52,270 nucleotides of DNA from a virus (taxonomy: Duplodnaviria; Caudoviricetes), in the IMG/VR virus record IMGVR_UViG_3300037424_000697, positions 1 through 52,270 of that record. One strand, given 5' to 3'. Below, in pieces: positions 33,349 to 50,976 of this stretch. Under the pieces are notes generated by a model. It had not been told where the DNA came from, did not search any database, and saw nothing but the letters and a program-made list of their open reading frames with translations. The position numbers and the translations under genes were made by a program. Positions within the stretch are counted from its first letter, which is position 1; each line of letters starts with the position of its first letter.

Positions 33349-33352
33349 TACT

Positions 33353-33529
33353 ATGGTAACAAAAGAAATGAAAATTAAACTTGGTTTGGCAAAGAGTGAG
33401 ACTGCAAATGAACGTGAAATTGCAAAACAAGGAGGATCACCCTATAAAAGAATGGTTAAGAAATTACCTCATAAAGCAGGTTTTGTTGTGCCTCCTCAAT
33501 ATGAGCCTTTACCTTGTACAATGGGATAA
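33353..33529 (+). CDS. Small basic hypothetical protein (58 aa, not in the ORF track)
   Basis: MVTKEMKIKLGLAK...; tightly packed between neighbours. Confidence 0.5.
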   Translation: MVTKEMKIKLGLAKSETANEREIAKQGGSPYKRMVKKLPHKAGFVVPPQYEPLPCTMG

Positions 33530-33532
33530 CTT

Positions 33533-33730
33533 ATGTTAGTTGTAAATTATAAAACGAAGAAGAGTCTCAAAGAGTCTCTAGGTAAAGATTTACTTCATAC
33601 TGAAACATCATTATTTGGAAAGGAGTTTAAAGCAAACGGAACTTTTTGTGTCGTCGGACCTAGCGCATACGTTCGTAAATGGTATGCTGAAGTAACAATG
33701 AAAGATGGTAAAATCGTTAAGGTAACCTAA
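33533..33730 (+). CDS. Hypothetical small phage protein
   Basis: Operon packing; VVGPSAY.RKWYA.V...DGKI.KV. Confidence 0.65.
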   Translation: MLVVNYKTKKSLKESLGKDLLHTETSLFGKEFKANGTFCVVGPSAYVRKWYAEVTMKDGKIVKVT

Positions 33731-33746
33731 TTAGAAAGTTTTACAA

Positions 33747-34730
33747 ATGGAAATTCTTAATATTAGTCCGCTCAAAATCAAGTTCCCCTATGACAATAAT
33801 GAATGCGGTCTTCGTCCCGAGCCAAAAGAAACTGATCCCGATTGGAATGTTACCCTAGAACTTCTCGAAGATATCCGAGGCAATGGTATGTCCGATCTGT
33901 TCAGTGTACGTCCTCTAGGTGATGATTTTTATGAAGTCATCAATGGTTCACGTCGGGCGAAGTGTTGTCAGATTCTCTGTAACGAGGGTGATCCGGCTTA
34001 CCAGAGTATTCCGGTCCAGATCAGTAACATTGATGAAATCACATCACTGGAACGACAGATCAGTGGAAATGCAAACGTAAAAGCAACCAATGCTAAGCAA
34101 TTTTCTGCCGCGCTGGTAAAGGTGATGGTACACAAGCAGTATGATCTTCCTACTCTCGCAAAAAGTGTAGGCAAAAGTGAATCCTACGTTAGCAACATGT
34201 TGCGTTTTAATCGTCTGCCGGACGTTATTCAGACTTTGGTGGCGGAATATAAAATGCCTGTGACTAACGCCATTGCCATGACCAAGCTCCCAAAAGACCT
34301 TGATATCATGGAATTGGTTGAGGATGCTTGTATGCTTGACACCAATGCCTTTGCAATTCGTATTAAAGAAGCTGTAGATGCATATGCAGCAGAGAAAAAG
34401 GCTCTGAAGGGTGGAAAAGAGCCTGTGTTTGAACTTACCGAGAAAAAACTCAGTAACGATCAGATCAAAGCTAACCTAGAGAAAGCTAAAAATCTGGTAG
34501 AAGACGATTCGTCTGAGTTTAATCGCGGCTATCTCTTTGCCTATGAAGAAATCTTTCAGGTAGATGAGAAAGCTGCTGCTGAGCGTAAAGCGAAGTGGGA
34601 TGCTAATAAAGCAGCAAAAGAAGCTGCCAAAGAAGCTCGCAAAGCTGACACTGAAGCTCAGAAGCGTAAAGAGTTGGCTGAGTATGCGAAAAAGCATAAT
34701 ATCACTGATTTGTCACAGCTGACAGCATAA
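33747..34730 (+). CDS. ParB/Spo0J-like protein 1 (ParB-N, HTH, helical C-terminus)
   Basis: L.EDIR.NG....SVRP....YEVINGSRR (GxRR), HTH LAKSVGKSESYVSNMLR...LP. Confidence 0.82.
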   Translation: MEILNISPLKIKFPYDNNECGLRPEPKETDPDWNVTLELLEDIRGNGMSDLFSVRPLGDDFYEVINGSRRAKCCQILCNEGDPAYQSIPVQISNIDEITSLERQISGNANVKATNAKQFSAALVKVMVHKQYDLPTLAKSVGKSESYVSNMLRFNRLPDVIQTLVAEYKMPVTNAIAMTKLPKDLDIMELVEDACMLDTNAFAIRIKEAVDAYAAEKKALKGGKEPVFELTEKKLSNDQIKANLEKAKNLVEDDSSEFNRGYLFAYEEIFQVDEKAAAERKAKWDANKAAKEAAKEARKADTEAQKRKELAEYAKKHNITDLSQLTA

Positions 34731-34738
34731 TTAACCTA

Positions 34739-34767
34739 TAAGGCGCATATCCTAAGTATGCGCCTTA
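34739..34767 (+). terminator. Hairpin after ParB-like gene 1
   Basis: TAAGGCGCATA-loop-TATGCGCCTTA. Confidence 0.55.
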
Positions 34768-34797
34768 CCTATAATAAATAACAAGGAACAATAATAA

Positions 34798-35508
34798 ATG
34801 AACGATTTAATTATGAATGTAAATCCTACCGATCTCCTTAACCAAGCAGGAGAAATTGAACCTAGTGAATTATCAAAGCTCGGAGCTACTGACTGGATTC
34901 CGCTTATGAGTGTGGCTCATTACCTCAGTGGATCTGTTGATAAGGGAGTAGCAAAAGCTGGCGAGTTTGTTCTAGGTGGACAAACATCACTTGGAACAAA
35001 AATTAAGGCAGTACCTCTGGCTTATAGATTACATGTGGCCCTTATAAATACAGCGTCCAATGAGTTTGTAGAAAATAAGTACTGTATGATGGGGCAGACT
35101 CCTGATGAAGGATATCGTACACTGGCCACAATGGCTGCTCCTGAGAATTGTGTTATTTCAGAGGGTGCAGACATGTTCTTTTATCTACCGGAACAAGATT
35201 CCTTTGCTCAGTTTTTTATGAAAGGACAAATTGCAAAAGATGTACAAGCTGTTTGGACCTCTGGTCGAGGCGGCAAGGTAGTTATATTAACTACAAGTAA
35301 GCAGGAAAACAAGCAAAGAACCAGAAAATGGTTCCGTATTGCTGTTTCTACTACTTCGTCTTCATTGACCATAGCTAATGTTGGAGACAAGGATATACCT
35401 ATTGACGTAGATATGTACAAGAAGTATCTAGGTCAATTCTCAAATCCTGTCAAAGCAGTAGCTGAAACTGTCAAGGATGATGGTAATACTGAAAGTATTG
35501 AAAGGTAA
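34798..35508 (+). CDS. Hypothetical protein, possibly ssDNA-binding
   Basis: Replication-arm position, beta-rich with KWF motif and acidic tail; function inferred only. Confidence 0.35.
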   Translation: MNDLIMNVNPTDLLNQAGEIEPSELSKLGATDWIPLMSVAHYLSGSVDKGVAKAGEFVLGGQTSLGTKIKAVPLAYRLHVALINTASNEFVENKYCMMGQTPDEGYRTLATMAAPENCVISEGADMFFYLPEQDSFAQFFMKGQIAKDVQAVWTSGRGGKVVILTTSKQENKQRTRKWFRIAVSTTSSSLTIANVGDKDIPIDVDMYKKYLGQFSNPVKAVAETVKDDGNTESIER

Positions 35509-35513
35509 CACAA

Positions 35514-35894
35514 ATGAATCTAGTTTCAATTCCAGTCGTAGACATTTCCTTACTGCCTATTAGTTTACCGGTGGCAGATGGTATAAACAATGGGGGATTT
35601 AAAGTGCCTAACAGTATAAATACTTCTACGCATGAGTACTCTCCCATTGATTTGCTGATAGCTGGAATTGAAGCTCTGCGGCGTGACATTATTGTCACGT
35701 CGCTTGCCTCTTTTTTTGACAATAACCGAGATGGGTGTTCAAGTGAAAGTGATGTATATATAACACTAAAAGATATAGGAGGTATATATACTTGGTCAAT
35801 TTCACGTTTGAGACAAGAAATTAAGTTTGACGATTCTTTATATAAAATGATGTTAAGAAATGCACCTTTAACCTTTAAATGGGTAGACAAATGA
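35514..35894 (+). CDS. Hypothetical protein
   Basis: Operon packing, AAGG RBS. Confidence 0.55.
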   Translation: MNLVSIPVVDISLLPISLPVADGINNGGFKVPNSINTSTHEYSPIDLLIAGIEALRRDIIVTSLASFFDNNRDGCSSESDVYITLKDIGGIYTWSISRLRQEIKFDDSLYKMMLRNAPLTFKWVDK

Positions 35895-36127
35895 AAACAT
35901 ATCCTCTTGAAAGGGTAGTAAGGGATAAAAAAGGAAAACTATGTATAGCACCCAAGTTCTTTGATAGAGGGTGTTATTTTTATTTCGTACCGTATAAGTT
36001 TCTAGGTAAAATTTCAGAGGGCCAAATATACTTATTTAAGTTTGGTCCCCCCAAATATAACGGAAAGAAAGATAAAAAAGGTAAACGTATATATGTCTGT
36101 GCAGCTATACCTATAATAAAGGAGTAA
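35891..36127 (+). CDS. Hypothetical basic protein
   Basis: Operon packing; start at MKTYP approximate. Confidence 0.5.
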   Translation: MKTYPLERVVRDKKGKLCIAPKFFDRGCYFYFVPYKFLGKISEGQIYLFKFGPPKYNGKKDKKGKRIYVCAAIPIIKE

Positions 36128-36130
36128 ATT

Positions 36131-36502
36131 ATGGCAACTGAATTAATTGATTCTGGAAAACGTGAACAATATTCACCTAGTAGTGCAGTGCGAGAACCTG
36201 AAAAAGGTAAGGGACGTTATGATTTAATTTCACCTATAGCTCTGCATAGATTAGCACAACACTATGAAAATGGAACCGCTAGGTATGCTGATCGTAATTG
36301 GGAAAAGGGTATACCGTTGTCTAGGTGTCTTTCCTCGGCAGCTCGTCATTTGAATAAATTAATAGCTGGAATGGATGATGAAGATCATGCAGCTGCGGTT
36401 TGTTGGAACATCTTTGCCTATATGCATATTAAAGAAATGGTAAACAGGGATAAGTTAAGTGAAACATATAACAATATGCCTGAAGGAATAGGAGATTTAT
36501 GA
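36131..36502 (+). CDS. DUF5664 / dATP-dGTP diphosphohydrolase-like protein
   Basis: GKGRYDLI, G..RY..RNWEKG, SAARHL, EDHAAA..WN signature. Confidence 0.8.
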   Translation: MATELIDSGKREQYSPSSAVREPEKGKGRYDLISPIALHRLAQHYENGTARYADRNWEKGIPLSRCLSSAARHLNKLIAGMDDEDHAAAVCWNIFAYMHIKEMVNRDKLSETYNNMPEGIGDL

Positions 36503-36900
36503 TGAGAGCATTTGTTGTGACCGATATAACAATATTAGAGGTACCTAGTTCAAGTAATACAGCTATACTATTTAAGGATAAAAATAGTTTTGTACGCCCA
36601 GATATTGCTGCATGTATAGATTATCCATTTGAAAGACAGATAATAGAACTGACAACCTTGCATTACCCAAAAGAGAATATACATTGTCGTATTGGTTTTG
36701 CGTATAATGTAGATAAAAAATTATTTCCATTTGGGGCTATAATTACTGAAAATAATGCTTTAAGAAGTAAGATAGGTAAGTTAGAGTCTGCTGTATTTTA
36801 TCTAAACTGTATAAACGAGGTTAAAAATAAATTACTTAAGAGATTTTATGGTGCTAAATTAAGTCAAAGGCTTAAATATCTCTTTACCTGTAAAATTTGA
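36499..36900 (+). CDS. Hypothetical protein
   Basis: ATGA coupling to the upstream ORF. Confidence 0.6.
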   Translation: MMRAFVVTDITILEVPSSSNTAILFKDKNSFVRPDIAACIDYPFERQIIELTTLHYPKENIHCRIGFAYNVDKKLFPFGAIITENNALRSKIGKLESAVFYLNCINEVKNKLLKRFYGAKLSQRLKYLFTCKI

Positions 36901-36914
36901 ACCTAGGAGTATAA

Positions 36915-37295
36915 ATGGGAATAGATGTATGGGCAATGAAAGATGGGCAACCTATTGAAATAGTATGGAGAATAGCTAATGAGGAGTATATAAAAGACCA
37001 TCAACTTAGAACAGCATTTGAGGAAGCTTCTAAAAGAGTAATAGAAGAACATGGTACAGTAGATTATATGTTAGCGTTAGGAGGTTTAGATTGTAGTGAA
37101 AGTATCTCTGCTTTAGTTAGGTGTAGTGGTGTATATTATAGAGAGTTATATTTTTCAGCAGCTGAAATAAAAGAATTTCATTTTATCTCAGATTGGACAG
37201 AAGCACCAGATTATCTGGATAAAGCGTTGGTAGCTTCAGCACAGGAATTCTTAAGAGTTTGTGCTGAAAATAACTTAGGCATACTGTTTACCTAG
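36915..37295 (+). CDS. Hypothetical protein
   Basis: AGGAG RBS. Confidence 0.65.
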   Translation: MGIDVWAMKDGQPIEIVWRIANEEYIKDHQLRTAFEEASKRVIEEHGTVDYMLALGGLDCSESISALVRCSGVYYRELYFSAAEIKEFHFISDWTEAPDYLDKALVASAQEFLRVCAENNLGILFT

Positions 37296-37306
37296 AAAGG
37301 TATACT

Positions 37307-39076
37307 ATGGATTGCTTTTTTAACACACCTACTGGCCGCAAAAAGATAAAAGTAGATATGTGGCTAGACCCCGAAGCCAAGGGGAATATATATTGTTTAA
37401 AGTTTCCCTATTTCAAACCTATGGTTGAATACGTCAAGACTCTGGATAGACCTAGTTCAAACAGTTTTGATCCTGCCAGTAAGGTGTGGAGAATAAAAAA
37501 TAACCGTCGCAATTTATTTAGTTTGGATCTTATTACAAGAAATGAAATGGTTAAAAAGTTTATAAGACCCCTATATACAGAGGTCTTCGAAGGTAACTGG
37601 AAACACCAGAATGAAATGCAAAACGCCATTATAACACGTAAAACGTGTATTATAGGTGGTGAGATGCGTACCGGTAAAACAAAACCTACGCTCAACTGTA
37701 TTCGTGATCTAGCTCAAGGTAATGCATGGATTATATCTACAAAGACTGCTTTACGTGGTGTTAAACGTGAAGCGGATAAATGGGGAGTAACAAAGAATAT
37801 CAACATTAATTATTTCACTTATGCTGGATTTAGGAACTATATACAGGAACTGCATAGTAGTGAACAGGCGTATAACGCTGCTGTTCTAGGTCAAGGTTTC
37901 ATAACAAGTAATCTGATTCCTAATTTCGTTGTATTTGATGAAATGCAAAACCTGAAAACTCCTAATACTCGAGTATCAGATGCCTCTGATATTTTAAGTA
38001 GTTGGATGCATGAGTTGTATGGGTGGGATAATTACTATTTGGTGGGTTTGAGCGGTACTCCTGCGCCAAAGAATCCCGGCGACTGGTGGCATCTATTAGA
38101 GGTTATTTGTCCGGGATATATCAAAGAACCTAATAGGATGATGTTTGAGCGCCGTCTAGGTGAATTTGAACAGCAAGAGAGTGGGATAGGGCAGATGTAC
38201 TGGAGACTCAAGCAGTGGAGACAAGAAGAGTTGACGGCTCTTTATAAGAGGTTAAAACCTATAGTGTTTATATTTCTTAAGAAAGACTGTCTTGACCTTC
38301 CACCTATTGAGTATGAGATAGTGGACTTACCACCAACAAATGAAATGCTCAGGACGGCTAAGTTAATTACTAAAAATACATTGAACACCTTGAGTTGTCT
38401 AAATAAACTAAGACAGTTGAGTGACGGTTTTATGTACCAATACGAATACAATGAGGAGGATAACACAAAAAAGCGTACCGGTGCAGAATTTACTGGATCA
38501 CCTAAAATTGAACAGTTGAAAGATGACCTAGATGAATATAAAGATATTGGTAGAATTATTATCTATGCTGGATTTCAAGGCTCATTGGACATTATAACCG
38601 AGGAATGTCTAAAGAAAGGTTGGGTAGTTTTACAGATTGATAGTAGGGGATGGAACATATTTTTACCATTGGTTGATAAAGATGAGAATGACCTTAAGGG
38701 ACAGAATTTTGAAACTGTTATAGGTCAAAAAGTAGACATTGATCTTTGTCTACAAGAAATGGACAGGTCATCTGATAAAGGTGTGTTGGATAAATTAGCG
38801 ATAGTAGCCAATCCTGAAGCAGGAGGAGAAGGTAATGAATTTAGTGCATCACCTGTAATTATTTATTACTCTAATACCAATAAAGGTGCAGCACGTATGC
38901 AAAGTGAAGCACGTGCACACAGCAACAATATGGATAAAATGCGCGGTTTGTTGGTGAAAGACTATTGTCATTTACCTAGTGATTACAAAATACGTGAATC
39001 ACTAATCAATAAAAAGGATTTGCAAGCGATAACAATGGGAGATATTCAATCAGTTTTTGCAATGGTGGAGATTTAA
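37307..39076 (+). CDS. SNF2-like SF2 helicase/ATPase
   Basis: EMRTGKT, FDEMQ, LSGTP, GGEG, QSEARAH motifs. Confidence 0.85.
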   Translation: MDCFFNTPTGRKKIKVDMWLDPEAKGNIYCLKFPYFKPMVEYVKTLDRPSSNSFDPASKVWRIKNNRRNLFSLDLITRNEMVKKFIRPLYTEVFEGNWKHQNEMQNAIITRKTCIIGGEMRTGKTKPTLNCIRDLAQGNAWIISTKTALRGVKREADKWGVTKNININYFTYAGFRNYIQELHSSEQAYNAAVLGQGFITSNLIPNFVVFDEMQNLKTPNTRVSDASDILSSWMHELYGWDNYYLVGLSGTPAPKNPGDWWHLLEVICPGYIKEPNRMMFERRLGEFEQQESGIGQMYWRLKQWRQEELTALYKRLKPIVFIFLKKDCLDLPPIEYEIVDLPPTNEMLRTAKLITKNTLNTLSCLNKLRQLSDGFMYQYEYNEEDNTKKRTGAEFTGSPKIEQLKDDLDEYKDIGRIIIYAGFQGSLDIITEECLKKGWVVLQIDSRGWNIFLPLVDKDENDLKGQNFETVIGQKVDIDLCLQEMDRSSDKGVLDKLAIVANPEAGGEGNEFSASPVIIYYSNTNKGAARMQSEARAHSNNMDKMRGLLVKDYCHLPSDYKIRESLINKKDLQAITMGDIQSVFAMVEI

Positions 39077-39078
39077 TT

Positions 39079-39405
39079 ATGGATGGCATATTAAAAAGTT
39101 ATCTAAATTGTATAAACGAGGTAAAGGAAGAGTTAGTTACTGCATTTATTGCAAAACATGGCTTTGATCCGGATCATGCCGAGATAATTCAAGAAACGGA
39201 AGAGAATTGTATTAAAATATACATAAGAAAACGTAATAATGGTAAGGTTTGTAGAATTAGCAGTCTCACTAATTCCTGGGTACTTGAAGTAGAAGGTAAA
39301 ACAGAGTACTTCGCAGGATATGGATTAGCAGGGTATTTGAAAAATATACATGAAGAACTAGGTTATAAAGTTATATATGAACCTTTAAAATTTATGGAGG
39401 TTTAA
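39079..39405 (+). CDS. Hypothetical protein
   Basis: GGAG RBS; flanked by an 18-bp near-identical repeat. Confidence 0.6.
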   Translation: MDGILKSYLNCINEVKEELVTAFIAKHGFDPDHAEIIQETEENCIKIYIRKRNNGKVCRISSLTNSWVLEVEGKTEYFAGYGLAGYLKNIHEELGYKVIYEPLKFMEV

Positions 39406-39407
39406 TT

Positions 39408-39629
39408 ATGGAAGTCATTATAACATTTGGTCAAGTACACGTGCACAGAGTAAATAATACAACGTTCGATAAAGATTGTGTAGCCGTAATAACATGTCTT
39501 GATTATGAAGATGGTCGTATAAAAGCTTTTGCACTATTTGATACAAAGTGGCACAATTGTGTGCCTAGAAAAGAATGGAATGAATTAAGTATGAAATATT
39601 ATCCACGCGGTTACTTGAAAGCGAATTAA
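39408..39629 (+). CDS. Hypothetical phage protein
   Basis: GGAGG RBS; ITFGQ.H.H pattern. Confidence 0.65.
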   Translation: MEVIITFGQVHVHRVNNTTFDKDCVAVITCLDYEDGRIKAFALFDTKWHNCVPRKEWNELSMKYYPRGYLKAN

Positions 39630-39631
39630 CT

Positions 39632-40033
39632 ATGTTTATAATTCAAGAATACGTTCCACCTGACATATATGAAAAATATTATGAACATTCTGTATGGTTT
39701 ATCAACCCCAAATTAATGGAAAGTGATTTAACTTTACGTAAGTATTTTGATGTACCTATTATAATTAATAATTGGCATAACGGAGGACAAAGAAAATATA
39801 GTGGTTTTAGACCTAGAAACTGTAATATAGGTTCTGATTTGTCACAACACCGTTTAGGTAATGCTTCAGATAAAATTTTTAAAGGATTAGATGTGTTAGA
39901 AGTGCAACAGGAAATAATAAAAAATCAAGATAAATTTCCTTTAATAGGTGCAATAGAAACAGGTGTTAACTGGGTACATACTGATGTGAGGACTAGAATT
40001 AACGGTAGTTTACTTGAATTTAAAAAGACTTAA
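39632..40033 (+). CDS. Peptidase M15-family protein (endolysin candidate)
   Basis: SGFR, SQH..G.ASD, WVHTD zinc ligands. Confidence 0.8.
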   Translation: MFIIQEYVPPDIYEKYYEHSVWFINPKLMESDLTLRKYFDVPIIINNWHNGGQRKYSGFRPRNCNIGSDLSQHRLGNASDKIFKGLDVLEVQQEIIKNQDKFPLIGAIETGVNWVHTDVRTRINGSLLEFKKT

Positions 40034-40052
40034 TTATATAAAGGAGATAGAT

Positions 40053-40865
40053 ATGCAGATCAAAGAACAAGTACAGTTTATTAATGAGACTTCTAAAGTA
40101 GTTGAAATATTTAAAGCCAGTAATGGAGGTATCAGACCTCATTTTATAGTGACCGGCCCGTCCGGATGTGGAAAAAGTTACACAGTTCAGATGCTAGCCA
40201 ATAAATTTGACCTAGCTTATTTGGAAATAAACGCAGCCCAGCTTACAAAAGAGGGTACAAGTGGTAATAGTTTATCTAAAGCCTTATCTCCTTTAATGCA
40301 GAGAAGTGATAAACTCACACTGTGTTTTGTAGATGAGTTTGATAAATTATTTATTTCTGGAAACTCTAATTCATCTGTTGCACATGAAACTACCACAGGT
40401 GTACAAAATGAATTTTTAAAAATATTAGAGTCAGATACTACATCTGTATTTGGTGACTATGGTAAATATATTAATGTATCTGTTAAGAAAATGCTTTTTA
40501 TTTTTGCAGGTGCCTTTAATGGAGAAGAAGATGTAACTGTAGACAGGCTTAGAGAATTTGGTATAAAAACAGAATTTCTAGGTAGAGTAGGACTTGTCTT
40601 TAATACTCCAGAGGTATCTTTAGATTCTATGTATGGATTAATAGACAATAGTGATTTACTAAAAAAATATCTTTTACTATTCCCTTCAGTAAATAAAAAG
40701 GATGTGGTAGATAGGGTAAAGAACTTTATTACTGAGAATTACGAAAAGAATACTTTGGGGATAAGATTAATAAGCACGGCCATAACTAGGTACTTTATTA
40801 GCGGTGGCAAAATAAATGAAGAAAAAGATAAAAAAGATGCATTTCAAACAACCCTAACTGTATAA
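40053..40865 (+). CDS. ClpX/HslU-like AAA+ ATPase lacking the N-terminal zinc domain
   Basis: GPSGCGKS, FVDEFDKL, GVQNEFLKILE, FIFAGAF, EFLGR, G.R motifs; start at MQIKE after AAGGAG. Confidence 0.8.
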   Translation: MQIKEQVQFINETSKVVEIFKASNGGIRPHFIVTGPSGCGKSYTVQMLANKFDLAYLEINAAQLTKEGTSGNSLSKALSPLMQRSDKLTLCFVDEFDKLFISGNSNSSVAHETTTGVQNEFLKILESDTTSVFGDYGKYINVSVKKMLFIFAGAFNGEEDVTVDRLREFGIKTEFLGRVGLVFNTPEVSLDSMYGLIDNSDLLKKYLLLFPSVNKKDVVDRVKNFITENYEKNTLGIRLISTAITRYFISGGKINEEKDKKDAFQTTLTV

Positions 40866-40875
40866 GGGATTAACT

Positions 40876-43179: not shown

Positions 43180-43745
43180 AAGAAGAAAATGGGTACCACA
43201 CAGATAACAATGGTAATAAATGGAATAAACTGTTTTATACAGAAGAACTGGCTTTAAAAGCTTCAAATAGTTGCATAAATTGCATAAATTGCACGGATTG
43301 CATGAATTGCACGGATTGCATGAATTGTGGGTATTGCATGAATTGTGGGTATTGCATGAATTGCACGGATTGTGGGTATTGCATGAATTGCACGGATTGC
43401 ATGAATTGTGGGTATTGCATGAATTGCGTAAATTGCACGGATTGCATGAATTGTGGGTATTGCATGAATTGCGTAAATTGCACGGATTGCATGAATTGTG
43501 GGTATTGTAGTAATTTTTTATCTAATCCAGAGAGAATAGTATCTCCTGTTTTAGGTTCTAGAAAAAGTCAAACATGTATATACTTTCTAGGTAAAATCTC
43601 GCAAGTTACATGCGGATGCTTCAATGGAACATTAGATAATTTTGAAAAAGCTGTTATAGAGACACACAAAGGTACTAAATATGCACAGGAATATTTGAGT
43701 TGGATAAAAAGAGTAAAAAATTATATCTATGGAGATGTTAAATGA
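43176..43745 (+). CDS. Cys-tripeptide repeat protein with GCFxGTL C-terminal domain
   Basis: (CMN/CTD/CGY/CVN)n; C-terminal GSR...CGCFNGTLDNF. Confidence 0.7.
   Translation: MKEENGYHTDNNGNKWNKLFYTEELALKASNSCINCINCTDCMNCTDCMNCGYCMNCGYCMNCTDCGYCMNCTDCMNCGYCMNCVNCTDCMNCGYCMNCVNCTDCMNCGYCSNFLSNPERIVSPVLGSRKSQTCIYFLGKISQVTCGCFNGTLDNFEKAVIETHKGTKYAQEYLSWIKRVKNYIYGDVK
43272..43508 (+). repeat. 9-bp-unit coding tandem repeat
   Basis: Shuffled units TGCATGAAT, TGCACGGAT, TGTGGGTAT, TGCGTAAAT. Confidence 0.9.
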
Positions 43746-44737
43746 AAGATTTTCTCTGTAAAGCACACAGTGCCGGTATTAATGGTGACTATTCAAATTA
43801 TATTTGGTCACGTAAACTTAATGGATTCTCTATGTTGTGGGACGGGGGAATAAGTATAGGTCAACCTATAGGTCAAGTCTTATGGGGTAAAGAAAGAGCC
43901 AATGAAGATCGTTATACCAAGTGCACTGGTCTTTGGACAAGTGACGCACATATTGTTCATGCTCCTGAGTGGTGGTATATAGACTTCCCTAAATTTATAC
44001 CGTTGCAAGGAGAGTGCTGGTATAACGATAATAAAACATATAGTTCGGTGTGTAACTGTACACTAAAGAAAAGCATAGAGGATTCACGTTGGCATAAATT
44101 AAAGTTTGTAGTGTATAACTATAAACCCTATTGTTTATTTAATGGTCTAGGTGAATATAATTTTGAGGGTAATATTATGTTTCATCAACACTACCCTAAT
44201 ATATCTTATTCTAAAAGGCTAAAAAACATAGTAGGTACATCTATTATTTATAATATATCTGAGAGTAGTATAATAAATGTTATTGATTTTTATATAGGTT
44301 TTCCTACTAGTCTAGGTGAACTTTTAAAAGAGAAAACCATAGATTCTAACAACTGGGAAGGTATAATGTTAGCTAACCCTAACGCTCATTATACCTGTGG
44401 GCGTTCTTATGATCTCTTAAAATTAAAACCAGAATATGATATCGAGGTAGAGGTTATAGGATATAACCAAGGAGATAAACGTCACACAGGAAGAATGGGT
44501 TCACTCAATGTTAGGTTGAAATGGGATGAAAAGGTTGAAAGTTTTCATGGAGGTAAAAAAGATTATATAGGTAAAACTGTTTACTTTTCAGTAGGAGGAG
44601 GGTTTGACGATACTCAACGTGAATGGAGTTATGTACATGATAAGTTCAGTATAGGTAAAGTTATCAATATCAAGTTTAATGAGGTAGGTGAAAATGGATC
44701 TATTCCTTCAGCGAGATGGAGCGGCGAAAATGAGTGA
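43742..44737 (+). CDS. ATP-dependent DNA ligase
   Basis: SRKLNG (motif I), QGE, EGIML, LLKLKP, OB-fold VGGGF. Confidence 0.82.
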   Translation: MKDFLCKAHSAGINGDYSNYIWSRKLNGFSMLWDGGISIGQPIGQVLWGKERANEDRYTKCTGLWTSDAHIVHAPEWWYIDFPKFIPLQGECWYNDNKTYSSVCNCTLKKSIEDSRWHKLKFVVYNYKPYCLFNGLGEYNFEGNIMFHQHYPNISYSKRLKNIVGTSIIYNISESSIINVIDFYIGFPTSLGELLKEKTIDSNNWEGIMLANPNAHYTCGRSYDLLKLKPEYDIEVEVIGYNQGDKRHTGRMGSLNVRLKWDEKVESFHGGKKDYIGKTVYFSVGGGFDDTQREWSYVHDKFSIGKVINIKFNEVGENGSIPSARWSGENE

Positions 44738-44963
44738 CATTACTTGCGTAGAAAAAATTGAAATTGAAACAGATGTAACTTATATGGATTACAGTTATTC
44801 TTGGGAAAAATTAAAAACTTTTCTTATAAATCTTAAAGAAATTAAAGTTTCTTCTCTAGAGAAAATTATGGTAGCTTTAAAAGACTACGGTGAACTTTTA
44901 CCAGAGAAGGGTGATCTTAGTAAAATTAGAGATTTACTTTTAAATATAGGTGAAATCATATGA
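44730..44963 (+). CDS. Hypothetical protein
   Basis: Operon packing; start at MSDIT. Confidence 0.55.
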   Translation: MSDITCVEKIEIETDVTYMDYSYSWEKLKTFLINLKEIKVSSLEKIMVALKDYGELLPEKGDLSKIRDLLLNIGEII

Positions 44964-44976
44964 AAGGTAATACACT

Positions 44977-45339
44977 ATGATGCAAGAAGAGACTTTAAAA
45001 ATAGGAAATCCTTTAAGAGTCTACATGGAGCATCTAGGTTGGGCAACAGTAAAAACACATGGAAATCAGTTTCAAAAAGGGTTACCAGATTTCTATGCAA
45101 TGCACCATAAATATTCACCTAGATGGATTGAGACCAAAATACACGGTAGATCTTTAACAACAGCACAATTAAAACTATTCCCTATTATGCTATCTATGAA
45201 TGTGCCACTTTATATAATAGATGGAGATGACTTCAGAGGAGAGAAAGGATTACCTTCACTTAAACAGGCATATCAAAAATTATTTCAGCCCTCTAGGGCA
45301 GCATTTTATTTAACTTCGGCTTTAAGGAGTTTAGTATGA
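44977..45339 (+). CDS. VRR-NUC-like nuclease
   Basis: KGLPD, WIETK, LTTAQ motifs. Confidence 0.75.
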   Translation: MMQEETLKIGNPLRVYMEHLGWATVKTHGNQFQKGLPDFYAMHHKYSPRWIETKIHGRSLTTAQLKLFPIMLSMNVPLYIIDGDDFRGEKGLPSLKQAYQKLFQPSRAAFYLTSALRSLV

Positions 45340-45545
45340 AAGTAGGGGATTTAGTTGTTCCAGTAACAAAAGAATGGGATAAGAAGAGGTATACAGTTTT
45401 GGATATTTTTGTATCTGAACGTAATGGTGATAGATTAATTCAGGTAGGGTTCATAGGAAGTATGCAGCAACCACAAATAGCCATAGTAAATGAGAGATTA
45501 TTTGAAAGGAGCGAATTAAATGAAACTGTACCTAGTCCTGTTTAA
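45336..45545 (+). CDS. Small SH3-like hypothetical protein
   Basis: MKVGDLV start; ATGA coupling. Confidence 0.55.
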   Translation: MKVGDLVVPVTKEWDKKRYTVLDIFVSERNGDRLIQVGFIGSMQQPQIAIVNERLFERSELNETVPSPV

Positions 45546-45930
45546 TGATGGAAAAGGAATAGCACCGTATCTATGGGATGTACTTACAGTTAAAGATGAA
45601 AAACCTGATATGCTGCACCTGTACTCTGGTCAAGCTATTGACTTATTGTTAGATAAGGATGTTCAGCCGCTATGTAAACTTCAAAACGGACAAACCGTTT
45701 ACACTGTTGTTGTTAAAACTTTACCTAGGAATATGGTAGCTTTTGATATAACCAAACATGTTAAACTGTTGACAAGTGATGCATTCTTTGCTTTGAAGGT
45801 ATTCACTTTGAAATGTAAATTTAGTGCTATAGCAACAATGGCTATGGAAAAACACGGATCAGAACAGCAAAAGAATTGGTATAAAGTAATAGGGTTTATG
45901 GAGCCCATTTTTAACGGAGGTTGGATGTAA
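45520..45930 (+). CDS. Hypothetical protein
   Basis: AAGGAG RBS. Confidence 0.6.
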   Translation: MKLYLVLFNDGKGIAPYLWDVLTVKDEKPDMLHLYSGQAIDLLLDKDVQPLCKLQNGQTVYTVVVKTLPRNMVAFDITKHVKLLTSDAFFALKVFTLKCKFSAIATMAMEKHGSEQQKNWYKVIGFMEPIFNGGWM

Positions 45931-46484
45931 TGGAAATACATGTAAGAGTAATAGAGGAAGCGGGATACAATTCAGCTATGCTAGGTTTATCTTTTAATAA
46001 AAATCAAAATGCAGATAATATGTTCAATGTGGCAAAGAAATTGGCTCCTTTGGATTTAGGACATAATAAATTTCTGGAACAGATCTATGTATGGGTTGAA
46101 GTAAATGCACCTAGGTATTGGTGGCAGGAAGCTGACACATTTAGGTTGTCTAGTAAGTCAAGTCAATCCACCATGCACACAATACTTAAGAACGAATTAA
46201 CTGAAGAGAATTTTGAGGATCATGATACTGACGGTATTAATTTATACTTTCTTAATACCCTTTTAAAAGCGGAAATGCTGGTTGAGTTAAAAAAGAAATT
46301 ACCTGAAGGATTTATGCAAAAGCGTATGTGGTGTATGTCATACAGGACACTCAGGAATATAATCTTACAGAGACGGAACCACAGATTACCTCATTGGAAG
46401 GAGTTTATTAAACAAATGCTAATACAAGTTATTCATCCTGAACTTTTACCTAGCCTTGAAGGAGATAATAAATGCAACAATTAG
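45930..46484 (+). CDS. ThyX-fold-like phage protein (divergent)
   Basis: GH.KFLE, APRYWWQEAD, STMH, LPEGF.Q, YRTLRNI..QR..HRL; lacks the canonical RHR motif. Confidence 0.55.
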   Translation: MEIHVRVIEEAGYNSAMLGLSFNKNQNADNMFNVAKKLAPLDLGHNKFLEQIYVWVEVNAPRYWWQEADTFRLSSKSSQSTMHTILKNELTEENFEDHDTDGINLYFLNTLLKAEMLVELKKKLPEGFMQKRMWCMSYRTLRNIILQRRNHRLPHWKEFIKQMLIQVIHPELLPSLEGDNKCNN

Positions 46485-46804
46485 ACTATTTACTGGGTCA
46501 ATGCGTGTTACAAATAAAATTAGATAATCTTATGGTGGCTAAAGACTTTTTAATTATACGTATAGACACTAATGAGAAGGACGTGGCTAGGTGTAAACCC
46601 ATCAGTGAAAGCGAAGCAAGTAAAATTATTCAAAAATATGGTTTCAATATAGGTTCTGCATTGAGGCATATCTTTGCTTTCACAAGAACAATTAAAAAGG
46701 GAAGTCGTCCCAATAAAGCCGAGCTAAGAACAGCTTTAAAGTACATTAATAAAGAAATAGAAAGACTTTCTCCTAAGGAGGACACACACAGTGAACAAAA
46801 TTAA
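46472..46804 (+). CDS. Hypothetical protein
   Basis: GFNIGSA...L.TA.KYI..EI pattern similar to the DUF3310 C-terminal half. Confidence 0.5.
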   Translation: MQQLDYLLGQCVLQIKLDNLMVAKDFLIIRIDTNEKDVARCKPISESEASKIIQKYGFNIGSALRHIFAFTRTIKKGSRPNKAELRTALKYINKEIERLSPKEDTHSEQN

Positions 46805-47738
46805 ATTTCTTAGCGTTAGTGCTCTTAATATGTTTCTTGAGCAGCCAAACAAGTTTTATTGTACACGTTTAGCAGATGAAAAGTTACCTAGAGAACCACA
46901 ATCACTTGCTGCTGCAGCCGGTACAATATTTGATATTAATGTGAAACTGTGCTTAATTGATAATAGATTACTAAAAGGTTACATTGACAACGCAGAAGCA
47001 GTTAGAACTATAAAGAATAGATTTGTAAACTTTCCTTGGTATCAAGAAGGAAAAAAAAGTAAGACTCTCATTGAACTCTTCGAGGAATCATTGGAGCCGC
47101 AGAATAGAATTGATGAGATTTACAAAGTAGGTAAAAGACTTTTTGATGCTTACTTTAATAGTCCGTTGATTAGGAGCAATTACTTTGATATTGAAGATAA
47201 AAATATCTTTGAATTAAAGGTGAAAATAGGTGGAGTAGAACACGTTGTACCCATCTATACTGTTATAGATTGTGTTTTACAGGGAAAGGATTATGGACTT
47301 TTTCCAATGGATTTAAAAGTCTCAGGATATTCAAGTGGTGCCTCACCCAAACCTAAGTATAGTGGGAGTTGGGACGAGTTAGGTAATAGTTTAGGTGCTC
47401 ACAAGAACTACGTTAATGATATTTCTTTTGAGTTAATTGATGAAGCATGGGCAACTCAAGGGTGTACTTATGGATGGAGTCTAGGACGAAAACTCTTTGA
47501 GCCTTTCCCTTTTCATATTCATGGTGTATATATGGGCATACCAAAACAAGATGGATCTAGGTCAATAAAGGTGTGTGAATATAAAGGAATTATAACAGAA
47601 GAGTTTCAAAAACTGACGGCGTTAAAGTATATCACTGCGTGGAACACAATTAACGCTGCCAGTGGTAGCGTTGCCCCTTGGTGTGATGAACCATTGTTGT
47701 GTGAAATGTTATCAAGGACAGAACATTTTGGATGGTGA
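46791..47738 (+). CDS. PD-(D/E)XK nuclease (Cas4/RecB-like exonuclease)
   Basis: LSVSAL, GT.FD, IE, VID, DLK, Q...Y motifs; GTG start after AGGAGG. Confidence 0.7.
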   Translation: MNKIKFLSVSALNMFLEQPNKFYCTRLADEKLPREPQSLAAAAGTIFDINVKLCLIDNRLLKGYIDNAEAVRTIKNRFVNFPWYQEGKKSKTLIELFEESLEPQNRIDEIYKVGKRLFDAYFNSPLIRSNYFDIEDKNIFELKVKIGGVEHVVPIYTVIDCVLQGKDYGLFPMDLKVSGYSSGASPKPKYSGSWDELGNSLGAHKNYVNDISFELIDEAWATQGCTYGWSLGRKLFEPFPFHIHGVYMGIPKQDGSRSIKVCEYKGIITEEFQKLTALKYITAWNTINAASGSVAPWCDEPLLCEMLSRTEHFGW

Positions 47739-47794
47739 ACGTAGTATCCTTTTGTAGCTTTTTGAAAAAATCAAAAAACATTTTTATTTAAGAA

Positions 47795-47824
47795 TACAGA
47801 GTGCAATTTAAATTGCACTCTGTA
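47795..47824. terminator. Perfect 30-bp palindrome at the end of the replication operon
   Basis: TACAGAGTGCAATTT-AAATTGCACTCTGTA. Confidence 0.6.
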
Positions 47825-47825
47825 C

Positions 47826-48263
47826 CTATTTATATATAAATATATGTATTAATAAATATATACATTTATAAATGTATGTGCTTATATATAAAAGTGTTTA
47901 TAGATAAATGTATTTATAAGTAAATAAAAGTGTTTATAGATGTATGAGTATTTATATATGTGTATTTATAAATATATGTATATACATTTATTTATGAGTA
48001 TTTATATATTTATACCTACATTTATGTATATACATTTATTTATAAATAAAAGTGTTTATATAAATATTAATTTAGTGTATTTTATATATTTATATATAAG
48101 CACATGCATTTATTTATAAATACATTTATTTATAAATAAATGCATATGTATGTGTATTTATATATTCATACATATATAAATATATGGATATTAACCTAGT
48201 GTATATTTATATTTATTTATATTTATTTACATATTTATATAAAAATAAAAAAATAAAAAAAAA
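47826..48263. repeat. Very AT-rich low-complexity non-coding tract
   Basis: Recurrent TACATTTAT and AAAGTGTTTATA words; no ORF. Confidence 0.8.
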
Positions 48264-48453
48264 CTCCGGTTGTTCTTCGTGGCCTTACCATTGTTACAGC
48301 GGAGCAGCGAAATTGACAAATGATTATTATTTGTAAATTGACACCGTTTGTCAATTGACAAATAGGAATACCTCAAGTAAACTAGGTTAACGTTTTGTCA
48401 AGGTGCACTTTGAATTGTGTTCTTATTGTGTCAACTATACCATATATGGTATG

Positions 48454-48650
48454 GTGAAATGACTACAATTTTTGTATAAATGTAAGTCATTGATTTTTAT
48501 ATAGATATAAAGGTATTTTATTAGGTGTAAACTTTTTGGGGTGAAATGACTACAATTTTTATATGAATGTAAGTCATTGATTTTCATACAAATACAAAGG
48601 TATTTTATCGGGTGTAAATTTATTGTGGCCAAATGACTACAATTTTTATA
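48454..48650 (+). repeat. 87-bp tandem repeat (about 2.3 copies) carrying IHF consensus sites
   Basis: AAATGACTACAATTTTT at 48457, 48544 and 48631; AATCAATGACTTA (minus strand) at 48483-48495 and 48570-48582. Confidence 0.85.
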
Positions 48651-48757
48651 TATACTATAAATGATATTTACTACATGAATGATATTTATATATAATAGAA
48701 CGGGTACCTATTATATATACGCTATATATGAGTGTATATAGGTTATGTTTTATCTAT

Positions 48758-48773
48758 TGGCATGATGATTGCT
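48758..48773 (+). promoter_or_regulatory. sigma54 (-24/-12) promoter
   Basis: TGGCAT-N5-TTGCT with exact spacing, upstream of small ORFs and ParB-like gene 2. Confidence 0.7.
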
Positions 48774-48809
48774 TTATATATTAGTGTGCTTAAACGAAAG
48801 GTTTTTAAA

Positions 48810-48887
48810 ATGTTAGTAAACATAATCCATTTTTTAGTGCTTGCGATTTCTTTAGGATTTATAATTTTATCGTGTAGGTATAAATAA
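48810..48887 (+). CDS. 25-aa hydrophobic peptide
   Basis: GAAAGG RBS; MLVNIIHFLVLAISLGFIILSCRYK. Confidence 0.4.
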   Translation: MLVNIIHFLVLAISLGFIILSCRYK

Positions 48888-48889
48888 TT

Positions 48890-49085
48890 ATGAAAAAAAA
48901 AACCTACTATATCCGGTAACGGTAAATATATTGTTGAAGATGGCGAACAGAGAACAAAAACAGCTTATTATATGAAAAAATTGTTAGATAAGGAACAGAT
49001 AATTATGAAATTGCATTTTTTATATTGTGCTCTATATGTTACACTATGTATATTAGTTATAATTTTTTTATTAAAAGGAATATGA
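48890..49085 (+). pseudogene. Small membrane protein gene frameshifted in an A10 run
   Basis: Removing one A from 48893-48902 gives a 64-aa ORF with a C-terminal TM helix. Confidence 0.4.
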
Positions 49086-49086
49086 A

Positions 49087-49218
49087 ATGTATGAACTAAT
49101 TCAGGAACTTGAGCAATCGCTTGACTTGTGCGAAACGGTCGAAATGAATCAATCTATTATTGATTGGATTATTGAAAATAGTTTAACTTATAATATGGAA
49201 GGAACATTACATATCTAA
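49087..49218 (+). CDS. Small acidic protein (43 aa)
   Basis: AAGGA RBS; MYELIQELEQSLDL... Confidence 0.45.
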   Translation: MYELIQELEQSLDLCETVEMNQSIIDWIIENSLTYNMEGTLHI

Positions 49219-49292
49219 TAATCGTCAGGCTGTCGTTCATACGTGAACGTAAAATTTAACTTATATTTGACAATTTACAAAAGGAATTTATT

Positions 49293-50258
49293 ATGAATAC
49301 TAATAATTTTAAAATTGTTTCCGTTTCTTCAATCCTCATGCCCGTTAACGGGATGCTTCGTCCTTTTGAACAGGGAAAACAGGAAAAAGATAAAGAAGGC
49401 AATCCGATTGAAGGAAAGGGCGATAAAGCATATCTTACGTTTTTTGAGAGAAAAACGTCAATGATCAAGGAACTTAGTATATCAGGATACGCGAACCATA
49501 CTCCCATTACAGTGTATGAAGGGCGCAAAGGATTGACAATTGAGATAGAGGAAGGTGTTGTAGATACCGAAGGGAAATACATTGTTGCAGATGGCATGCA
49601 GCGTACCGGAACAGCTTTACAAATCGGAATTGATACACCAGTTCAAATCATGATCATAAGTGAAGTACGTGCAAGAGAGTTAATGATTAGTGCCGGATAC
49701 CATCGTAAACAGAATAGCCCGGCACAATTCACAAAAATACTTCGCGAAGATATAAAGAGCAATCCCGATGTAACTGTCGATTCCCTTTGCAAACGGTATT
49801 CTATGAGTGAAGCGACTATCAAGCGTTTTCTTGATATTTTGACTTTGCCTATAGACGTAACGGATAAAATAGGTGTATCAATCCCGTTACATGTGGGTGT
49901 TACCCTTGCAGATAAAATCAAACGTCTAGGCAAAGGGAAAAAGGAAAACATTGACCTATTGATAATGAGTGCTATTGATGGCACACTGGAAAAAGTAGCG
50001 GGTGACATATCGGCAAAGCAACAGGCGGAAAAATTGGCAAGTAAGAATATTACTCCTGTTTATCAAGAATTGGCGCCTGTTTACAATTCGGAACGGGCAA
50101 GAATTATCAAAGCGGAAATTGACAATATGATTGAAGAGTTGCCCGATTCTGAATTTTTCAAAGGACAATTGGAACTATGGAATTTCATTCACGGAATTTC
50201 AGAGAGTGATCGAAAAGCGGATCACGAAAAATGGGATACTCTTCACGCGAAAAAGTAA
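49293..50258 (+). CDS. ParB-like protein 2 (paralog of 33747..34730)
   Basis: PITV...YIVADGMQR, HTH LCKRYSMSEATIKRFL..L.LP, shared C-terminal SEF..G...KWD. Confidence 0.72.
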   Translation: MNTNNFKIVSVSSILMPVNGMLRPFEQGKQEKDKEGNPIEGKGDKAYLTFFERKTSMIKELSISGYANHTPITVYEGRKGLTIEIEEGVVDTEGKYIVADGMQRTGTALQIGIDTPVQIMIISEVRARELMISAGYHRKQNSPAQFTKILREDIKSNPDVTVDSLCKRYSMSEATIKRFLDILTLPIDVTDKIGVSIPLHVGVTLADKIKRLGKGKKENIDLLIMSAIDGTLEKVAGDISAKQQAEKLASKNITPVYQELAPVYNSERARIIKAEIDNMIEELPDSEFFKGQLELWNFIHGISESDRKADHEKWDTLHAKK

Positions 50259-50282
50259 ACTGGTGAAAGTTAACCTATAACT

Positions 50283-50306
50283 AACGGCACTAAATTTAGT
50301 GCCGTT
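50283..50306 (+). terminator. Hairpin after ParB-like gene 2
   Basis: AACGGCACTAAA-TTTAGTGCCGTT palindrome followed by T-rich sequence. Confidence 0.6.
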
Positions 50307-50331
50307 TACTTTAACTAAAAGAAGGTGTGCT

Positions 50332-50976
50332 ATGTTAAAAAGAATTAAATTATATCACATTGTTGATAATAAAGAAATAATCGGAATACATAAAAGGTTG
50401 ATAGGTGATTGCTCTGGTTTGCATGGTGATTGCTCCGGCTTGATAGGTGATTGCTCCGGCTTACGGGGTGATTGCTCCGGCTTGATAGGTGATTGCTCCG
50501 GCTTGACAGGTGATTGTTCCGGCTTACGGGGTGATTGCTCCGGCTTACGGGGTAATTGTTCCGTTTTGCTAGGTAATTGTACCGACTTGACAGGTGATTG
50601 TACCGACTTGATAGGTGATTGCTCTGGTTTGCATGGTGATTGCTCCGGCTTGATAGGTGATTGCTCCGGCTTACGGGGTGATTGCTCCGGCTTACGGGGT
50701 AATTGCTCCGGCTTATGGAACGATTGCACCGGCTTGACAGGTGATTGTTCCGGCTTACGGGGTAATTGTTCCGGTTTGCACGGTGATTGCACCGGTTTGC
50801 TAGGTAATTGTACCGGCTTGGCAGGTGATTGCACCGGTTTGCACGGTGATTGTTCTTGCTTGGCAGGTGATTGTTCCGGTTTGCACGGTGATTGTTCTTG
50901 CTTGCTAGGCAATCTTAACCTTTGTATAATTGATAAAATAAATGGAACAGATATTAATACTTTAATAAAGGAGTAA
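50332..50976 (+). CDS. Heptapeptide (GDCSGLx) repeat protein
   Basis: About 24 tandem 21-bp units; start at MLKRIK after AAGGTG. Confidence 0.75.
   Translation: MLKRIKLYHIVDNKEIIGIHKRLIGDCSGLHGDCSGLIGDCSGLRGDCSGLIGDCSGLTGDCSGLRGDCSGLRGNCSVLLGNCTDLTGDCTDLIGDCSGLHGDCSGLIGDCSGLRGDCSGLRGNCSGLWNDCTGLTGDCSGLRGNCSGLHGDCTGLLGNCTGLAGDCTGLHGDCSCLAGDCSGLHGDCSCLLGNLNLCIIDKINGTDINTLIKE

Follow-up and report, generated by a model that had tools for sequence, protein, structure and literature searches.

Two ParB-like paralogs without ParA in an uncultured, lytic-looking phage group: candidate switch proteins of the phage's own genome

ParB-fold nucleotide switches do far more than chromosome segregation, and almost no phage copy has a known function. 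Among the better described proteins, Noc binds many dispersed sites and requires a membrane-targeting N-terminus, while KorB of plasmid RK2, a DNA-sliding clamp that represses over long range and is locked by KorA or TrbA, is encoded together with IncC (ParA) in an operon for partition and regulation. KorB is described as a cytidine triphosphate (CTP)-dependent sliding clamp and repressor (PMC11790492) and VirB as a user of a CTP switch (10.1101/2023.06.01.543266); plasmid-prophages such as P1 are reported to use ParB, and orphan ParB-fold proteins to be common on mobile elements and in phages (both PMC12704722); a phage ParB homologue is reported to be required by a subclass of T-dioxygenases (PMC13229309). 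Here two ParB-like genes of a tailed phage, copy 1 and copy 2, are described, both contained in a DNA stretch of 52,270 bp (the window), which is the whole of IMG/VR record IMGVR_UViG_3300037424_000697.

Both copies share with KorB the fold and the order of the domains, and KorB acts on its own replicon by gene regulation, as is proposed here for the phage proteins; unlike the KorB system, the phage has no ParA, and no KorA-like partner was identified. Noc resembles the phage pair as a ParA-less ParB paralog born by duplication; it is, however, a chromosomal protein, whereas the copies described here are phage-encoded, and known from sequence and models. The ParB of P1, a representative of ParABS systems (TIGR00180), features a ParB N-domain and a helix-turn-helix (HTH), and is phage-encoded, as both copies are; it differs by the presence of ParA and of a ParA-binding motif, both lacking here, where the gene content looks lytic. 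The orphan ParBs of PMC12704722 have features in common with both copies: a ParB-CTPase fold, a location away from parA, no ParA-binding motif and, often, a divergent Box III. The ParBs associated with 5mYOX enzymes (PMC13229309) are also phage-encoded, have no partition role and keep the nucleotide-binding and C-terminal domains; they have no obvious DNA-binding domain and adjoin a TET/JBP enzyme, whereas both copies contain an HTH. An orphan-ParB pair conserved across a lytic phage clade was not found in a full-text literature search, although the supplements of PMC12704722 may list such pairs. Our preferred reading, for which we see the chances as evenly split, is that both copies are ParA-less switch proteins, gated by nucleoside triphosphate (NTP), that bind DNA at specific sites and act, during lytic growth, on the genome of the phage itself. 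The data presented here establish the fold and homology of the copies, their history of duplication, the conservation of a ParB pair in the clade and the lack of ParA, integrase and methyltransferase; nucleotide binding, the DNA sites and the biological role of the copies we infer.

Copy 1 (P0001, 327 amino acids) is encoded at 33747..34730 and copy 2 (P0002, 321 amino acids) at 49293..50258, both on the plus strand. An earlier inspection of the letters of this DNA (the sequence-only reading) had proposed two full-length ParB-like paralogs at these positions, and both open reading frames (ORFs) were confirmed. BLASTP aligns the two proteins with 24% identity (E 1e-5) over 214 amino acids, a stretch that begins at the GxxR box and reaches the C-terminus; a profile-profile comparison of the two families gives 98.2% (E 3.8e-14, 224 columns). 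The shared features on which the proposal was based are in place: the HTH is followed by LP (L157-P158 in copy 1, L185-P186 in copy 2), and the C-terminal strings PVFE, SEFNRG and KWD of copy 1 have their counterparts in PVYQE, SEFFKG and KWD of copy 2. Copy 1 consists of a ParB/Srx N-domain (R23, G67-S-R-R70, N108), an HTH at about 134-166 and a family-specific helical C-domain, followed by a Lys/Glu/Ala-rich terminal helix (274-316). In copy 2 the corresponding residues are R23, D100-G-M-Q-R104, G135, in place of a near-invariant Asn, and R138, with the HTH at about 162-182; the C-domain of copy 1 is shared, an insertion is present in the N-terminal part (about 26-60) and the charged terminal helix, accounting for 35 residues in copy 1, is missing.

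Structure prediction, which the sequence-only reading had proposed as a check, gave confident ParB/Noc/KorB-like models for both copies as single chains. The AlphaFold models, based on alignments of 149 and 148 sequences, have a pLDDT (predicted local distance difference test) of 92.4 for copy 1 and 93.3 for copy 2. Both match ParB, Noc and KorB structures with a Foldseek probability of 1.00 (E from 1e-11 to 9e-8): the best match in the PDB is Noc 7nfu (1.1e-11) for copy 1 and ParB-CDP (cytidine diphosphate) 6sdk (9e-8) for copy 2, and the KorB chains 8qa8 and 8qa9 are among the best matches to both. Many phage proteins of 300-350 amino acids, labelled ParB/Spo0J, also match the copy 2 model in a viral structure library. 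Profile searches of PDB chains agree: with the family profile of copy 1, ParB and Noc chains are found at 1e-11, with that of copy 2, Spo0J 6sdk at 6.8e-5. Judging from profiles and models, a ParB-Srx fold and an HTH are thus found in both copies, and both are proteins of the ParB/Noc/KorB architecture, in which a putative NTP-binding domain at the N-terminus and an HTH precede the C-domain that the two families have in common.

The ParB-N domain that the sequence-only reading had seen in both proteins is upheld by profiles and models, less so by library scans. For copy 1, Pfam HTH_ParB passes the cut-off (2.4e-9) and PHROG 1033, "ParB-like partition protein", matches at 3.4e-14; ParB_N (0.014) and KorB (0.022) both remain under the Pfam cut-off. 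Copy 2 has no match in Pfam or PHROG: its identification as a ParB therefore depends on profiles and on the model.

The nucleotide pocket was examined by aligning a wide profile to Thermus Spo0J (1vz0), which pairs LR of the profile with QPR in Box I, DGxQR with GERR in Box II and saNlhR with ENLQR in Box III. The Box I Arg, R23, is kept in both copies, is near-invariant in the 148- and 149-sequence alignments and aligns to PRQPR of 1vz0. Box II GxxR is kept as well (G67..R70 in copy 1, G101..R104 in copy 2), and is conserved in at least 90% of the 148/149 sequences. A contrast between an intact GxRR in copy 1 and a changed box in copy 2 had been drawn from the sequence: the two strings are indeed present, NGSRR at 66-70 and DGMQR at 100-104. 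The second, however, shows no sign of decay, since DGxQR is the family consensus and the orthologues of copy 1 carry R, H or Q at the position that varies between GxRR and DGxQR. The unusual features of copy 2, as judged from the alignments, are the loss of the Box III Asn, the N-terminal insertion and the missing charged tail, rather than DGMQR.

According to the preferred reading, each copy would load as a dimer at specific sites of its own on the phage DNA; nucleotide binding would close each clamp, leading to spreading or sliding, and the clamps would organise or regulate the phage genome during lytic growth, by transcription control or by organisation of replication or packaging, in the manner of KorB, Noc and VirB. 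Having two paralogs would give the phage two specificities, and expression at two different times. Copy 2 has a different recognition helix, an altered Box III, an N-terminal insert and no charged tail, and an expression unit of its own, behind a repeat-rich control region.

Several findings weigh against this reading. Copy 1 scores 46.1 bits with TIGR00180, where the curated cut-off is 58.45, and 49.8 bits (2.8e-13) with the Noc family TIGR04285, its best NCBIfam match, where the cut-off is 315; copy 2 is also below threshold with TIGR00180 (parB_part; 24.5 bits, 1.9e-5), and it does not reach the Noc cut-off either. The canonical Box III, ENxxR (ENLQR in the reference), is found in neither copy: copy 1 reads GNANV, where Asn is kept and Glu and Arg are lost, while copy 2 reads AGYHR, where Arg is kept and Glu is lacking, with G135 at a position where Asn is at least 90% conserved. 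Because Box III is non-canonical in both, one or both copies may not cycle nucleotide as ParB does. Nucleotide specificity, according to PMC12704722, can be predicted from neither sequence nor AlphaFold3. Finally, CheckV rates the window as 72% complete, so that a partner gene could lie outside it.

The record is classed as linear. Terminase, portal, protease, major head protein and tape measure genes identify a tailed phage; its replication set includes an exonuclease and a primase, both on the minus strand, a helicase, a DNA polymerase of the family A type, a ligase, a MazG-like pyrophosphohydrolase and an AAA ATPase. When 50,697 GenBank phage records were searched, no near-identical DNA was found by megablast, and tblastn gave no match for either the DNA polymerase or P0002, and two weak matches (27-29% identity) for P0001; since even the polymerase is without a match in GenBank phages, the phage group is uncultured. 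Relatives were defined by DNA polymerase similarity (32-53% identity), which gave ten searchable records, syntenic with the window in the order primase, ParB, helicase, polymerase and ligase.

A ParB-like gene is present in all ten relatives, and two or more in seven of them; the remaining three, with a single copy, are records 11%, 28% and 49% complete. The orthologue of copy 1, called ParB-A (about 325 amino acids, with the same C-domain and tail), is found in nine of the ten, and lies between primase and helicase, in the replication module of every sufficiently covered relative. The second copy of the relatives, ParB-B, is shorter (about 275-300 amino acids), with canonical GHRR and ENLQR boxes and a C-terminus of its own; in three mapped records it lies between helicase and polymerase, an interval where it is absent from the window and from its two nearest relatives, L047 and L049. 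In this uncultured, lytic-looking phage group, two orphan ParBs encoded within the replication module or close to it are the norm, which makes the group a natural comparative system for the roles of ParA-less ParBs in lytic infection.

In the window, copy 1 starts 16 bp 3' of the preceding ORF, within a co-directional replication block (31383-47738). Its close relatives are ten, nine at 62-85% identity and one at 33%; in metagenome contigs its family profile detects five loci, only one of which (L003, 1281 bp) is close. 3' of ParB-A, two ORFs of 236 and 126 amino acids follow at 34798..35894 on the plus strand, in the window and, by tblastn, in both nearest relatives. They have no match in Pfam, PHROG, NCBIfam or PADLOC, and in the Atlas search all scores are below 0.9. 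The system offers, to comparative work, two paralogs, conserved neighbours of no known family and, as described below, candidate palindromes together with a motif that is spread over the genome at extreme frequency and with even spacing.

Copy 2 is not a ParB-B. Its family profile matches that of ParB-A with 99.4% in hhalign (E 2.4e-21, 248 columns), and that of ParB-B with 11.5% (E 0.0026). In a maximum-likelihood tree of 35 sequences, ParB-B forms a separate clade, while the copy 2 family, placed on a branch of 2.52 substitutions per site, joins two ParB-A groups in a three-way fork, the branching order of which is not settled. By both the profile match and the tree placement, copy 2 is an old, strongly accelerated duplicate of ParB-A. 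It may have been neofunctionalised and may take the place that ParB-B has in related phages; in one lineage, a fast-evolving duplicate of the first copy appears to have replaced the canonical-looking second. The contigs of the two nearest relatives end before the position where copy 2 would be expected.

The family of copy 2 is, by database searches, small and isolated. Seven close relatives were found, at 49-79% identity; its profile, used on 1.84 billion representatives, gave 178 matches at E<=0.001, 5 at <=1e-10 and 1 at <=1e-30. No ParB relative was found in viral contigs, when queried with P0002 and both family profiles, and no relative of the copy 2 profile in 185,579 species genomes. 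The HTH is invariant throughout the eight-member family, which argues that the DNA-binding part is under selection; three more distant members keep the Box III Asn.

A wider set of relatives, 39 loci sharing the AAA ATPase (40014-40865 in the window), was rejected: this ATPase is spread over unrelated phages, of Vibrio, Salmonella, Proteus and Pseudomonas. ParB was detected in none of the 39 with the copy 1 family profile, in a search without positive control, and in none of 29 with profile A4, for which the window served as positive control. These loci were kept as ParB-less controls; 38 of the 39 are long enough for the k-mer analysis described below.

Other ParB-like genes of the relatives deserve mention. 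In L062 (record G045), the ParB-B encoded at 11817-13589 is 590 amino acids long, with an insert of about 320 residues in the Box I region (FNC | RG); the insert looks intein-like by eye, and its flanks rejoin into a normal ParB-B sequence. In L068 (record G042, 82.5 kb, the sole complete relative), a third, weak ParB-like ORF of 344 amino acids is present at 980-2014, with a GNRR box; it matches the wide profile at E 6.9e-5.

The absence of ParA and of integrase, reported by the sequence-only reading for the window, extends to the group: AAA_31 and CbiA, as well as Phage_integrase (tyrosine), are found in none of the 11 records (the window and the ten relatives), one of which is 100% complete; in these searches the controls were positive in 14 of 14 genomes. 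No parA is adjacent to either parB gene, and the N-terminal ParA-binding motif, searched for as the regular expression [LFI]G[KR]G[LFI], following the definition in PMC12704722, is found in neither copy. As to membership of the partition ParBs (TIGR00180), the copies thus lack a score above the cut-off, a ParA partner and the ParA-binding motif. Since the phage group is without ParA and integrase, these proteins do not appear to partition a plasmid.

Partition of a classical plasmid-prophage would require ParA and the centromere to be located in a part of the genome that was not sequenced. The completeness of 72% would leave room for them, tandem arrays of 13-14 bp (52096-52224) and AT-rich repeats near copy 2 could be taken for centromeric DNA, and the use of ParB by P1, cited above, provides a precedent. 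In contrast, the missing part would have to hold what none of the 11 records, the complete one included, contains; copy 2 and its family have no relative in bacterial genomes, and polymerase, primase, helicase and ligase are all encoded by the phage itself. The record, moreover, may not be a fragment. Its bases 1-10 are identical to bases 52261-52270 (TGTAGGGGTT), this being the longest exact overlap of the ends: on account of these ten identical bases the record may represent a genome that is closed and circularly permuted, in which case the CheckV figure of 72% would be an underestimate. We consider partition very improbable, the least probable of the explanations weighed here.

A second set of data concerns a dispersed motif. 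About 125 copies had been counted by the sequence-only reading, and the count holds: ACCTAG occurs 126 times, with 21.75 +/- 4.99 expected, and none of 100 shuffled sequences reaches 126; the 7-mer ACCTAGA occurs 80 times, with 6.9 expected. Sites are found, for example, at 85, 143, 643-714 and, close to the other end, 51234. The extended consensus, T-R-W-W-W-N-T-T-N-ACCTAG-A, spans about 16 nt, is without dyad symmetry and is evenly distributed on the strands (60 vs 66). ACCTAG is used in all frames in which it creates no stop codon, and 21 of the 126 sites are intergenic; because all permitted frames are used and intergenic copies exist, the motif is selected as DNA. Spacing is more even than expected by chance (coefficient of variation 0.757 vs 0.985 +/- 0.085; a fraction of 0.0002 of 5000 simulations is as low).

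Such a motif may suggest that one or both ParBs load at the 126 or so ACCTAG-type sites, coating, compacting or shielding the chromosome, possibly as a heterodimer that reads the unlike halves of the motif. Strength of enrichment, selection at the DNA level and even spacing are what would be expected of such sites, and a span of about 16 nt is that of a site for a ParB dimer; the sites of ParB, Noc and KorB, and of HTH-ParB proteins, are palindromes, however, and this motif has no dyad symmetry. Relatives speak on both sides. L049 carries a TTAACC-type motif, with a related core and a similar density (38 in 17 kb, z 11-15), and L003, whose ParB-A is 67% identical, has 2 ACCTAGA in its 1281 bp; L047, in contrast, has a ParB-A orthologue (37% identical), yet only 5 ACCTAG in 20 kb. 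Its most enriched motif, TACCTYC (43 in 20 kb), was considered as a counterpart and rejected: 32 of the 43 are on the coding strand, and the motif overlaps the Shine-Dalgarno-like GGAGGT. The top z-score of strand-balanced k-mers has a median of 8.5 in 11 relatives and 6.2 in the 38 ParB-less loci (Mann-Whitney p=0.008, with sequences that are not independent); the two distributions overlap, the control maximum being 12.4. Within the window, the density of ACCTAG falls from 2.5/kb before 47738 to 1.1/kb after it. The copy 2 gene lies in an ACCTAG-free gap of 2187 bp, no larger than chance would give: a gap of at least that size occurs in 44% of simulations.

The evidence linking ACCTAG to the ParBs is thus circumstantial and mixed, and other DNA-binding or DNA-modifying proteins could own the motif, which could be a protein-binding, modification, nicking or priming site. 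Neither coating or shielding of the chromosome nor modulation of one paralog by the other, both put forward by the sequence-only reading, found support in the analysis. We regard loading of the ParBs at ACCTAG as unlikely; were it true, this would be the densest known ParB loading array. A more specific form of the idea, to which we assign a slightly lower probability, is that the two paralogs, by means of their unlike recognition helices, jointly read a bipartite T-R-W-W-W-N-T-T | N-ACCTAGA, present about once every 410 bp at nearly regular distances. NTP-gated clamps would in this way come to cover the entire chromosome during replication, to organise it or to label it as self for protection from nucleases, and each related phage would have a ParB pair and a motif of its own, such as TTAACC in L049. 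When the heterodimer of P0001 and P0002 was predicted with alignments, in a run without controls, the best score was 0.26, the mark being 0.32.

The same motif may be viewed as an enzyme target, being short, asymmetric, strand-symmetric and evenly spaced. The ParBs could then assist or activate, as subunits, a pathway of DNA modification or nicking, similar to the T-dioxygenase-ParB, DndB or GmrSD systems, with ACCTAG marking the modified sites. For proteins of the GmrSD_N/DndB type with a ParB fold, the motif names DGQQR and DGQHR are in use. Weak matches to GmrSD_N occur in 5 of the 8 members of the copy 2 family (best 0.0082); P0002 itself has none, nor does any significant family-model match place it in the GmrSD_N/DndB type. 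The requirement of a dioxygenase subclass for a phage ParB homologue, mentioned above, would be a parallel; those ParBs, however, differ from both copies by the HTH. The N6_N4, D12 and C5 DNA methyltransferase families are absent from the window, extending to all of it what had been noticed for the neighbourhood of the two genes; there is no TGT/DpdA in the window, and Tet_JBP (PF12851) is absent from the window and from the ten relatives, in a search without a positive control above the cut-off. The 236- and 126-amino-acid neighbours of ParB-A match no family. A role of the copies in DNA modification is judged improbable, more so than both forms of ParB loading at ACCTAG.

Returning to the preferred reading, in which the two paralogs would be expressed at different times, the control of the two genes was analyzed. 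Separate transcription units, as had been proposed, are well supported by the layout: copy 1 belongs to the co-directional replication block, and copy 2 follows about 1.5 kb of repeat-rich non-coding DNA. Each copy is followed by a hairpin of its own, also as proposed, with folding energies of -17.5 and -17.6 kcal/mol and z-scores of -4.43 and -4.72; none of 200 shuffled sequences is as stable. The two elements are similarly organized. Directly after the stop codon of copy 1, at 34731..34767 on the plus strand, the 11-mer TTAACCTATAA is followed by a hairpin with a 12-bp stem (34739-34767); 12 nt after the stop codon of copy 2, at 50270..50306, also on the plus strand, the same 11-mer precedes a hairpin with a 10-bp stem (50283-50306). 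Exact copies of TTAACCTATAA are found in the window at 34731 and 50270 only.

The region between replication operon and copy 2 (47760..48700, no strand assigned) is non-coding and rich in repeats and palindromes. It contains a hairpin at 47795-47824 and AT-rich degenerate repeats at about 47827-48250, among which a palindrome of 20 bp lies at about 48107. A cluster of ATTGACA is accompanied by a second palindrome, of 14 bp (TTGTCAATTGACAA, 48348-48361). An 87-bp unit, which includes an inverted repeat, is present 2.3 times, and its 27-nt head recurs three times. Downstream of it, a match to the sigma54-type -24/-12 consensus, TGGCAT-N5-TTGC, is located at 48758..48772 on the plus strand, about 520 bp upstream of copy 2. 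The sigma54 promoter described there by the sequence-only reading is thus present as a consensus match only; control of copy 2 by sigma54 is putative. Two exact matches of this type are found in the window, with 0.30 expected, and 4 of 100 shuffled sequences reach two.

The unit of copy 2, which is separate, includes small ORFs and is preceded by clustered promoter-like elements, would also suit an early, host-directed function, with copy 2 acting on host DNA, on host ParB/parS, on nucleoid organisation or against defence systems. The branch length of 2.52 fits a protein engaged in an arms race, or a neofunctionalised one, and for the ParB-fold fusion proteins that are enriched in prophage regions, PMC12704722 proposes roles in anti-defence or in phage-host interaction. 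Against this, there is no host target to name, and neither copy has a match in PADLOC; this explanation is considered as improbable as a modification pathway.

The palindromes and repeat arrays at 47.8-48.7 kb and at 52.1-52.2 kb are candidates for parS, though nothing ties them to either copy. Short tandem arrays, which lie close to copy 2 and also where L047 ends, were considered as centromeres in general; beside the ParB genes of the distant relatives they are absent, in all seven loci (L059-L065).

A number of minor observations concern the surroundings of copy 2. At 48891..49085, on the plus strand, short ORFs lie behind an A10 run; one frame encodes ISGNGKYIVEDGEQRTKTA and a hydrophobic stretch. 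ISGNGKYIVEDGEQRTKTA is identical to the Box II region of copy 2 (residues 90-108) at 12 of 19 positions (E 1e-5 for that single comparison), and the ATG located 5' of the A10 run is in a different frame. The segment could be what is left of a third ParB gene, could encode a small protein made by slippage, or could result from a sequencing error. Directly 3' of copy 2, the ORF at 50299-50976 is made of 21-bp repeats (23.9 copies) and, in view of this structure, encodes a heptad-repeat protein, which the repeat families MSG and TigB match weakly.

Toward the end of the window, a terminator-like hairpin (18-bp stem, T-run) is found within 51527-51686, followed by the second sigma54-type match, TGGCAC-N5-TTGC, at 51633-51647, 39 bp 5' of the ATG of an ORF at 51686-51949. 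Four 11-mers of the TTAACCTATA type are located at 34731, 50270, 51595 (minus strand) and 52090, two of them exact and two with one mismatch. All four are intergenic and adjoin hairpins, and in their TTAACC core they are similar to the motifs dispersed over the window and over L049; the 11-mer may be a shared regulatory or processing element.

At 52096-52224 three perfect tandem arrays adjoin (14 bp x2.9, 13 bp x4.2 and 13 bp x3.6), followed, at the contig end, by the inverted repeat TTGACAAA...TTTGTCAA; by their sequence the arrays look iteron- or centromere-like. L047 also ends in an array (19899-20185), where a 14-bp unit, ATTGACAGAATGAT, is repeated 10.5 times with 99% matching, preceded by a 28-bp unit repeated 3.1 times. 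The 28-bp unit contains TTTGTAAATTGA, which is also found in the window at 48332-48343, within a longer stretch at about 48328-48345.

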